Of a stretch of 979 nt of DNA, positions 1 to 979 are shown piece by piece. Source of the DNA: Escherichia coli (GTDB lineage: Bacteria; Pseudomonadota; Gammaproteobacteria; Enterobacterales; Enterobacteriaceae); assembly GCF_003334315.1 (NCBI RefSeq), contig NZ_QOWR01000126.1, one strand, 5' to 3'. The position numbers and the translations under genes are program-made. How positions within the stretch are numbered: position 1 is the stretch's first letter; every line of letters begins with the position of its first letter. Under the pieces are notes generated by a model. That model did no database searches. It had not been told where the DNA came from and was given only the letters and a program-made list of their open reading frames with translations.

Positions 1-438
1 AGGCCGCAGTCGGTAACCTCGCGCATACAGCCGGGCAGTGACGTCATCGTCTGCGCGGAAATGGACGAACAGTGGGGATACGTCGGGGCTAAATCGCGCC
101 AGCGCTGGCTGTTTTACGCGTATGACAGGCTCCGGAAGACGGTTGTTGCGCACGTATTCGGTGAACGCACTATGGCGACGCTGGGGCGTCTTATGAGCCT
201 GCTGTCACCCTTTGACGTGGTGATATGGATGACGGATGGCTGGCCGCTGTATGAATCCCGCCTGAAGGGAAAGCTGCACGTAATCAGCAAGCGATATACG
301 CAGCGAATTGAGCGGCATAACCTGAATCTGAGGCAGCACCTGGCACGGCTGGGACGGAAGTCGCTGTCGTTCTCAAAATCGGTGGAGCTGCATGACAAAG
401 TCATCGGGCATTATCTGAACATAAAACACTATCAATAA
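1..438 (+). CDS. insB: IS1 transposase InsB segment (C-terminal part of the InsAB' frameshift fusion transposase); 5'-partial, frame open from base 1
   Basis: The ORF track gives 61..438, but frame 1 is open with no stop from base 1, and the upstream 20 codons ([20 protein letters not shown]) also match InsB. The ATG at 61 is therefore an internal Met, not the real start. From established knowledge, IS1 transposase is made by -1 frameshifting from insA into insB at an A6C motif, which would lie just upstream of this window. Stop TAA at 436-438 lies inside the terminal inverted repeat, as is typical for IS1. Confidence 0.9.
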
Positions 439-453
439 GTTGGAGTCATTACC
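431..453. repeat. IS1 right terminal inverted repeat (IRR), about 23 bp
   Basis: ATCAATAAGTTGGAGTCATTACC; the element terminus ...CATTACC at 453 matches the canonical IS1 end from memory. The partner IRL is outside the window, so the inverted-repeat relationship cannot be checked here. Confidence 0.75.
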
Positions 454-467
454 TATGTAAGGATAAT
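440..467 (+). promoter_or_regulatory. Candidate outward-facing hybrid promoter across the IS1/flank junction (-35-like TTGGAG in the terminal repeat, -10-like GATAAT in flanking DNA)
   Basis: TTGGAG at 440-445 (3 of 6 matches to TTGACA), 16-bp spacer, GATAAT at 462-467 (5 of 6 matches to TATAAT). Motif-level only and weak. Confidence 0.2.
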
Positions 468-543
468 CAAACATCGTGTGCGCTGATGGCAGAGTAGGTG
501 GAGGACTCCAGACAGTCAAACGATAGAAAAAGATAGCCTTTAT

Positions 544-548
544 GGAGG
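544..548 (+). promoter_or_regulatory. Shine-Dalgarno (GGAGG) for the yibA-like gene, 8-nt spacer to ATG 557
   Basis: GGAGG at 544-548, followed by 8 nt, then ATG at 557, which begins MSNTYQKRK... Confidence 0.55.
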
Positions 549-556
549 TTCCTGCA

Positions 557-802
557 ATGTCAAATACATACCAGAAAAGAAAGGCAAGTAAAGAGTATGG
601 TTTATATAATAAATGTAAGAAACTAAATGATGATGAATTATTTCGCTTACTTGATGATCGCAATTCCTTGAAAAGGATTTCATCTGCCAGAGTATTACAG
701 TTAAGAGGGGGGCAAGACGCTGTTAGATTGGCAATTGAATTCTGCACTGACAAAAATTATATCCGTAGAGATATCGGAGCATTTATACTCGGGCAAATAT
801 AA
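557..802 (+). CDS. yibA: YibA-like HEAT-repeat protein, N-terminal 81 codons terminated by a premature in-frame TAA (truncated product if expressed)
   Basis: Translation MSNTYQKRKASKEYGLYNKCKKLNDDELFRLLDDRNSLKRISSARVLQLRGGQDAVRLAIEFCTDKNYIRRDIGAFILGQI matches my recollection of the E. coli K-12 YibA N-terminus with a few substitutions. The ORF track starts at ATG 542 (MEVPAM...), but that ATG overlaps the Shine-Dalgarno, so 557 is the better start. Stop TAA at 800-802. Confidence 0.65.
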   Translation: MSNTYQKRKASKEYGLYNKCKKLNDDELFRLLDDRNSLKRISSARVLQLRGGQDAVRLAIEFCTDKNYIRRDIGAFILGQI

Positions 803-940
803 ATTTGCAAAAAATGCGAAGATAATGTTTTTAATATTTTGAACAATATGGCATTGAATGATAAGAGTGCTTGCGTTCGAGCTACGGCAATCGAGTCAAC
901 GGCCAGGGAAAGATCATCAAAAGTTCACTTTTTGCACTAA
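557..940 (+). pseudogene. yibA: yibA-like gene disrupted by a nonsense codon (800-802), with a second stop at 938-940 after similarity is lost; likely a pseudogene
   Basis: Same frame downstream of the TAA reads ICKKCEDNVFNILNNMALNDKSACVRATAIESTA (803-904), still YibA-like as I recall it. It then reads RERSSKVHFLH and stops at 938-940, far short of the roughly 280-aa length I remember for intact YibA. Confidence 0.5.
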
Positions 941-979
941 ATAATTCGCATTTTATGTTTAAAAATTGAGATATTCCTT

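Follow-up and report, generated by a model that had tools for sequence, protein, structure and literature searches.

Insertion sequences can create outward-reading or hybrid promoters, and the stretch of Escherichia coli DNA described here raises the question of whether an IS1 element has done so. The window, by which we mean the whole stretch that was analysed (979 nucleotides; contig NZ_QOWR01000126.1 of RefSeq assembly GCF_003334315.1), runs from an IS1 element across its end into flanking DNA, and a preliminary description had proposed a hybrid promoter at positions 440–475, with one half in the element and the other in the flank, directed towards the gene yibA. The general premise is well founded for IS1, for which fusion promoters were documented by Prentki, Teter, Chandler and Galas (1986, J Mol Biol 191:383), according to the passages of PMC9330008, PMC8764528 and PMC4287979 in which that work is cited.

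Positions 1–453 of the window are the 3′ part of an IS1 element (453 bp, IS1 positions about 316–768), lying on the plus strand in the direction of insA and insB. This segment matched thousands of annotated IS1 transposase loci at 99% identity or more, and comparison with the IS1 copy in L003, one of two sister copies at the same locus (L002 and L003) that are 768 bp long with 9-bp target duplications, gave 0 mismatches. The C-terminal part of the insB reading frame was identified at 61–438 (plus strand) from the list of open reading frames and its match to the annotated IS1 family transposase, and the TAA stop codon of insB, at 436–438, falls within the right terminal inverted repeat. The repeat itself (IRR; 431–453, plus strand) matches exactly the reverse complement of the canonical 23-bp IS1 IRR, GGTAATGACTCCAACTTATTGAT, reads outwards as ATCAATAAGTTGGAGTCATTACC and stands at the tip of the element. 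IS1 ends at 453, and all matches to uninterrupted genomes begin exactly at 454.

The −35-like hexamer TTGGAG (440–445, plus strand) had been assigned to the terminal inverted repeat and called weak, and both points were borne out: it lies inside the IRR, its end is 8 bp from the IS1 tip, and it matches TTGACA at 3/6 positions with a score of 2.6 bits. The −10-like hexamer GATAAT (462–467, plus strand) lies in the flank, matches TATAAT at 5/6 positions and already occupies this place in K-12, where the locus is uninterrupted. The 16-bp spacer between the two (446–461) and their common rightward orientation, towards the open reading frame starting at 542/557, had also been described with correct coordinates and arithmetic. 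The 9 bp adjoining the IS1 end (TATGTAAGG; 454–462, without strand) would be one copy of the target-site duplication expected of a simple insertion, and the first base of GATAAT is the last base of this target sequence. The left end of IS1 lies outside the window, and with the right end alone present both a simple IS1 insertion and an IS1-mediated deletion may fit. Positions 440–475 are an ordinary junction between the IS1 right repeat and the DNA that the element inserted into or was joined to.

The DNA beyond the junction was identified by comparison with K-12. The flank (454–979) was 100% identical to the K-12 locus (L001, from position 6001), starting 2 nt past the stop codon of yhhH. This is the gene after rhsB, and its product matches the immunity-protein family Imm-NTF2-2; the tip of RhsB is a DUF4329 domain. 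The locus is rhsB–yhhH and not rhsA–yibA. The latter was ruled out by the 100% match of the flank to the region downstream of rhsB–yhhH; homology to the true rhsA–yibA locus is limited to positions 511–903 of the window, with point substitutions there. The flank has a GC content of 36%, and its first part (454–556, plus strand) is the native intergenic DNA between yhhH and the yibA-like gene of the rhsB locus, identical to K-12. Alignment to rhsA–yibA showed that this intergenic DNA includes the 3′-terminal 26 nt of a coding region for an rhsA-type toxin tip, TAG stop included (511–536, plus strand). The presence of such a 26-nt relic just 5′ of the yibA-like start is typical of displaced orphan toxin/immunity modules in Rhs loci. 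A ribosome-binding site, GGAGG (544–548, plus strand), precedes the ATG at 557.

The name yibA, given to the target in the preliminary description, does not hold, as the gene in question is a pseudogene at the rhsB locus, yibA-like and truncated. Its remaining open reading frame comprises 81 codons (557–802, plus strand), and the encoded polypeptide is identical to YibA residues 1–81 at 78 of the 81 positions (96%, E = 6e-56). At codon 82 the AAA of yibA has become a TAA nonsense codon (800–802). Alignment and translations traced yibA homology beyond the nonsense codon (803–903, plus strand), to about codon 115 of 280, and this homology ends at 903, where ISEc1 truncates the gene. The left end of ISEc1, an H-repeat element of the ISAs1 family, occupies 904–979 (plus strand), as judged from the K-12 annotation and from the matches of this segment alone to other ISEc1 copies; in K-12 the start of the ISEc1 transposase gene, yhhI, is found 69 bp past the position of the window end. 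The yibA-like gene is doubly inactivated, by the nonsense codon 82 and by ISEc1 at about codon 115, and K-12 carries the same two lesions. RefSeq lists its copy as a pseudogene with an internal stop. An intact yibA as the target was ruled out, the 280-codon frame being broken and the gene not being directly downstream of rhsA. At the rhsB locus of at least one strain, EC0885, yhhH is followed by an intact yibA (L135, 2604–3446), and therefore the arrangement shared by K-12 and the window is a decayed derivative. The candidate promoter points at a dead yibA-like remnant. In its flank the window resembles the K-12 order rhsB–yhhH–(yibA-like pseudogene)–yhhI base for base, including the 26 nt of the tip 3′ end, the nonsense-bearing yibA-like fragment and ISEc1, and it differs from the K-12 rhsB locus in having an IS1 end in place of yhhH directly upstream.

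The strength of the hexamer pair was assessed against consensus and against chance. A consensus promoter scan with thresholds of 4/6 per hexamer and 9/12 overall did not report TTGGAG/GATAAT, because its matches of 3/6 and 5/6 give only 8/12. In a position-weight model built on textbook sigma-70 hexamer and spacer frequencies, taken as approximate values, the candidate scored 7.6 bits, compared with 18 bits for the consensus, and ranked seventh on the plus strand. Over both strands of the window 12 sites scored at least as high as the candidate, compared with 12.3 ± 3.7 in composition-matched shuffles that preserved the composition of the IS1 part and that of the flank separately. Similarly, sites at the 8/12 level numbered 16 in the window and 13.2 ± 3.9 in the shuffles. 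The architecture proposed for the hybrid promoter, with an outward −35-like hexamer in the repeat and a −10-like hexamer in the flank, thus stands, but a strength above chance does not, and promoter prediction scoring, which had been put forward as a check, came out against the proposal.

The same conclusion was reached from simulated and natural junctions. Mock IS1 right-end insertions were generated at every position, and on both strands, of 19.5 kb of K-12 DNA, and an equal or better hybrid arose at 3.0% of all mock sites and at 8.2% of the AT-rich ones; random sequence with the composition of the flank gave an equal or better hybrid in 6.9% of cases. In a natural null set, a small sample of 117 distinct IS1 right-end junctions from viral contigs, five (4.3%) were equal or better, and the candidate accordingly ranks in the top ~4% of these natural junctions (n = 117). 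Control offsets shifted by 10–30 bp gave 3.4–7.7%, as against the 4.3% at promoter spacing, and −10-like hexamers are therefore not enriched there. Two sister IS1 junctions near this locus in other strains scored 5.0 and 7.15 bits. The hexamer pair is a weak, chance-level match.

Some capacity for initiation may nevertheless be present. The candidate is the best plus-strand site within 380–556, upstream of the open reading frame; its −35 hexamer retains TTG, and in its −10 hexamer the A of position 2 and the T of position 6 are kept. At 16 bp the spacer falls short of the optimum, and an extended −10 TG is absent. The best score at GATAAT in native K-12 DNA was 5.6 bits, rising to 7.6 bits with IS1, a modest gain of about 2 bits. 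GATAAT is a competent −10 hexamer, the same as that of lambda PR, and even random DNA commonly shows weak promoter activity. Low-level initiation at the candidate may occur. Within the final 450 bp of IS1 no complete outward promoter could be detected, the best score being 4.7 bits. Scanning for intrinsic terminators found none between the junction and the open reading frame, nor farther downstream in the window, and a search for known RNA families in the window returned none at E ≤ 1.

Other promoter-like sites were also recorded in the window. The only one reported by the consensus scan, TTGGCA-18-AAAAAT (9/12; 728–757, plus strand), lies inside the yibA-like pseudogene, and 1.7 such sites were expected by chance. 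The highest sigma-70-like score, 10.9 bits, was obtained on the minus strand for TTGACT (519–514) and TACTCT (496–491), separated by 17 bp. This site reads leftward, towards the IS1 end, and in genomes without the interruption transcription from it would run antisense into yhhH. It is missing from the list of the consensus scan, its −10 being a 3/6 match.

The two ends of IS1 are not equivalent in what they offer to the flanking DNA. In full copies of the element the outward hexamer at the left end is TTGGCA (5/6, 6.1 bits) and that at the right end is TTGGAG (3/6, 2.6 bits); the end present in the window is the right one, that is, the one with the poorer outward hexamer. A text search of the literature for TTGGAG together with IS1 found no mention. 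A perfect match to the IHF core consensus (WATCAANNNNTTR = TATCAATAAGTTG) was found at 430–442 (plus strand; 1 match compared with 0.06 expected), and this overlaps the TTG of the −35-like hexamer. For IHF, binding sites have been reported at the two ends of IS1 (a passage of PMC11043490, which cites Gamas 1987 and Prentki 1987), and InsA competes with transposase for both IS1 repeats (PMC12428005). When bound at the repeat, IHF, InsA or transposase may occlude the −35-like hexamer.

Among the collections searched, the insertion is private to its source. A contiguous IS1–flank junction was found in 0 of 5,426 complete E. coli genomes, in which the megablast matches were split and non-contiguous, and therefore there is no sign of its retention by selection. 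In 2,970 of these genomes, matches to window positions 425–979 covered 80% or more of the query. An exact 40-mer across the junction had no match in GTDB species representatives, and an exact 35-mer had none in metagenome contigs. A protein look-up with the spurious open reading frame that spans the junction was likewise without a match, and a look-up with the 81-residue open reading frame returned uninterrupted rhsB loci only.

IS1 was found within about 1 kb of the flank in 42 genomes, and the two cases examined sit at other positions, namely in the 5′ part of yhhH (MLI105) and inside ISEc1 (SEC470). The IS1 copies at L002 (2282–3049) and L003 (3683–4450) have 9-bp duplications of their own, TGTTTTTAC and CGGATATTC, respectively. 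The rhsB–yhhH–ISEc1 neighbourhood looks like a local hot region for IS1. It was also observed that the window opens within a repeat, near position 316 of IS1, and closes 76 bp past the start of a second one, ISEc1. A repeat at either end, together with a junction that is absent elsewhere, may fit a whole draft-assembly contig broken at repeats.

The most probable interpretation of these data is that the locus is an ordinary junction at the right end of IS1, with the hexamer pair as a by-product of insertion into AT-rich DNA and with initiation absent, or weak and inconsequential. TTGGAG belongs invariably to the right end of IS1 and GATAAT was in the target beforehand; on this interpretation, the 16-bp distance would be a by-product of IS1 landing in AT-rich DNA rather than a selected promoter. 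The pair would at most amount to a weak sigma-70 site of the kind known from IS1 fusion promoters, its −35 half coinciding with the sites at which IHF and InsA/transposase bind the repeat. Anything transcribed from it would be the dead 81-codon remnant of a gene that is yibA-like and of immunity type, with ISEc1 behind it. The window shares with an ordinary IS1 junction an exact IRR, an insB stop codon in the repeat, an IHF consensus in the repeat and a flank of 36% GC, and no difference from such a junction was found in the right end that the window holds. IS1 prefers AT-rich targets (PMC9330008, in a passage citing Zerbib 1985), and from this preference and the 36% GC of the flank it follows that several look-alikes should occur in a genome that carries IS1 in tens to hundreds of copies. 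Initiation at the hexamer pair may be weak or absent, and a transcript crossing position 454 would more plausibly originate as read-through from IS1. Experiments with a lacZ fusion placed just past the insAB′ stop have shown that transcripts reach the IS1 right end, with a contribution from upstream genes (PMC12428005).

It is unlikely that the junction forms an active IS1 fusion promoter, in which TTGGAG and GATAAT would direct a start at about 473–476 and transcription through the yibA-like remnant into ISEc1 (yhhI), replacing the rhsB–yhhH read-through interrupted by IS1. The pair is the best plus-strand candidate upstream of the open reading frame, its −10 is the competent hexamer of lambda PR, IS1 adds about 2 bits at this −10 over the native sequence, and the geometry is right, with a hexamer 8 bp from the IS tip and a −10 at 16 bp; yet it remains an 8/12 match under the scan thresholds, statistically the same as chance, with a suboptimal spacer and without the extended −10 TG. 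Its −35 half overlaps the sites for IHF, InsA and transposase. A good ribosome-binding site (GGAGG) lies ahead of the ATG at 557 and no terminator-like site is found downstream in the window, but the gene that would be reached is dead and the junction is in no other genome searched. For IS1 such a mechanism has been documented (Prentki 1986, as cited in the passages of PMC9330008, PMC8764528 and PMC4287979); however, two of the three IS1 insertions examined in ST131 were without raised expression of the neighbouring gene, with osmB having fallen and ugd being unchanged (PMC8764528).

A further alternative, that GATAAT is part of a native promoter in the yhhH/yibA-like intergenic DNA, independent of IS1, and that the element only changed its upstream half, is quite improbable. 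GATAAT also occurs in K-12, whose locus is uninterrupted, and in strains whose yhhH is followed by an intact yibA; in the K-12 context TGGCCA-19-GATAAT scores 5.6 bits and TTGGCC-17-AAGGAT scores 7.05 bits. These native candidates are, however, as weak as the hybrid or weaker, and one of them requires a 19-bp spacer. The order rhsB–yhhH–yibA-like, in which overlapping or short gaps and the lack of a terminator suggest co-transcription, also argues against an internal promoter. It is very improbable indeed that a working fusion promoter raises expression of the ISEc1 transposase gene yhhI, or re-expresses the 81-residue orphan immunity fragment that has been cut off from the rhsB operon. If transcription into yhhI were real, one insertion sequence would be switching on another.

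The preferred reading, an ordinary junction, can be set beside the documented IS1 fusion promoters. Later cases than that of 1986 include acrEF in Salmonella and blaTEM-6 (PMC9330008), afaA in E. coli ST131 (PMC8764528) and pgaA in EAEC 55989 (PMC4287979). The window shares with IS1 fusion promoters an outward −35-like hexamer in the IS1 repeat and a −10-like hexamer in the flank at promoter spacing, directed towards a neighbouring gene. The documented cases, in contrast, were selected for, or shown to cause, raised expression of a working gene, whereas the candidate in the window is at chance level, has the poorer hexamer (TTGGAG, not TTGGCA) and points at a pseudogene. The finding is an ordinary one, because the hexamer pair is at chance level and the target is a truncated pseudogene. 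There is nothing new in kind here, the mechanism having already been described in 1986.

Were the promoter active, it would be one more example of the 1986 mechanism, acting on a pseudogene, and would matter little. The useful corrections are that the locus is rhsB–yhhH rather than rhsA–yibA and that the gene is a truncated remnant. A background rate has also been quantified, in that about 3–8% of IS1 right-end junctions will by chance have a −10-like hexamer at the spacing of a promoter. At this rate sequence alone is unfit for calling IS1 hybrid promoters, and IS1-rich genomes are therefore expected to hold several look-alikes of the junction described here.
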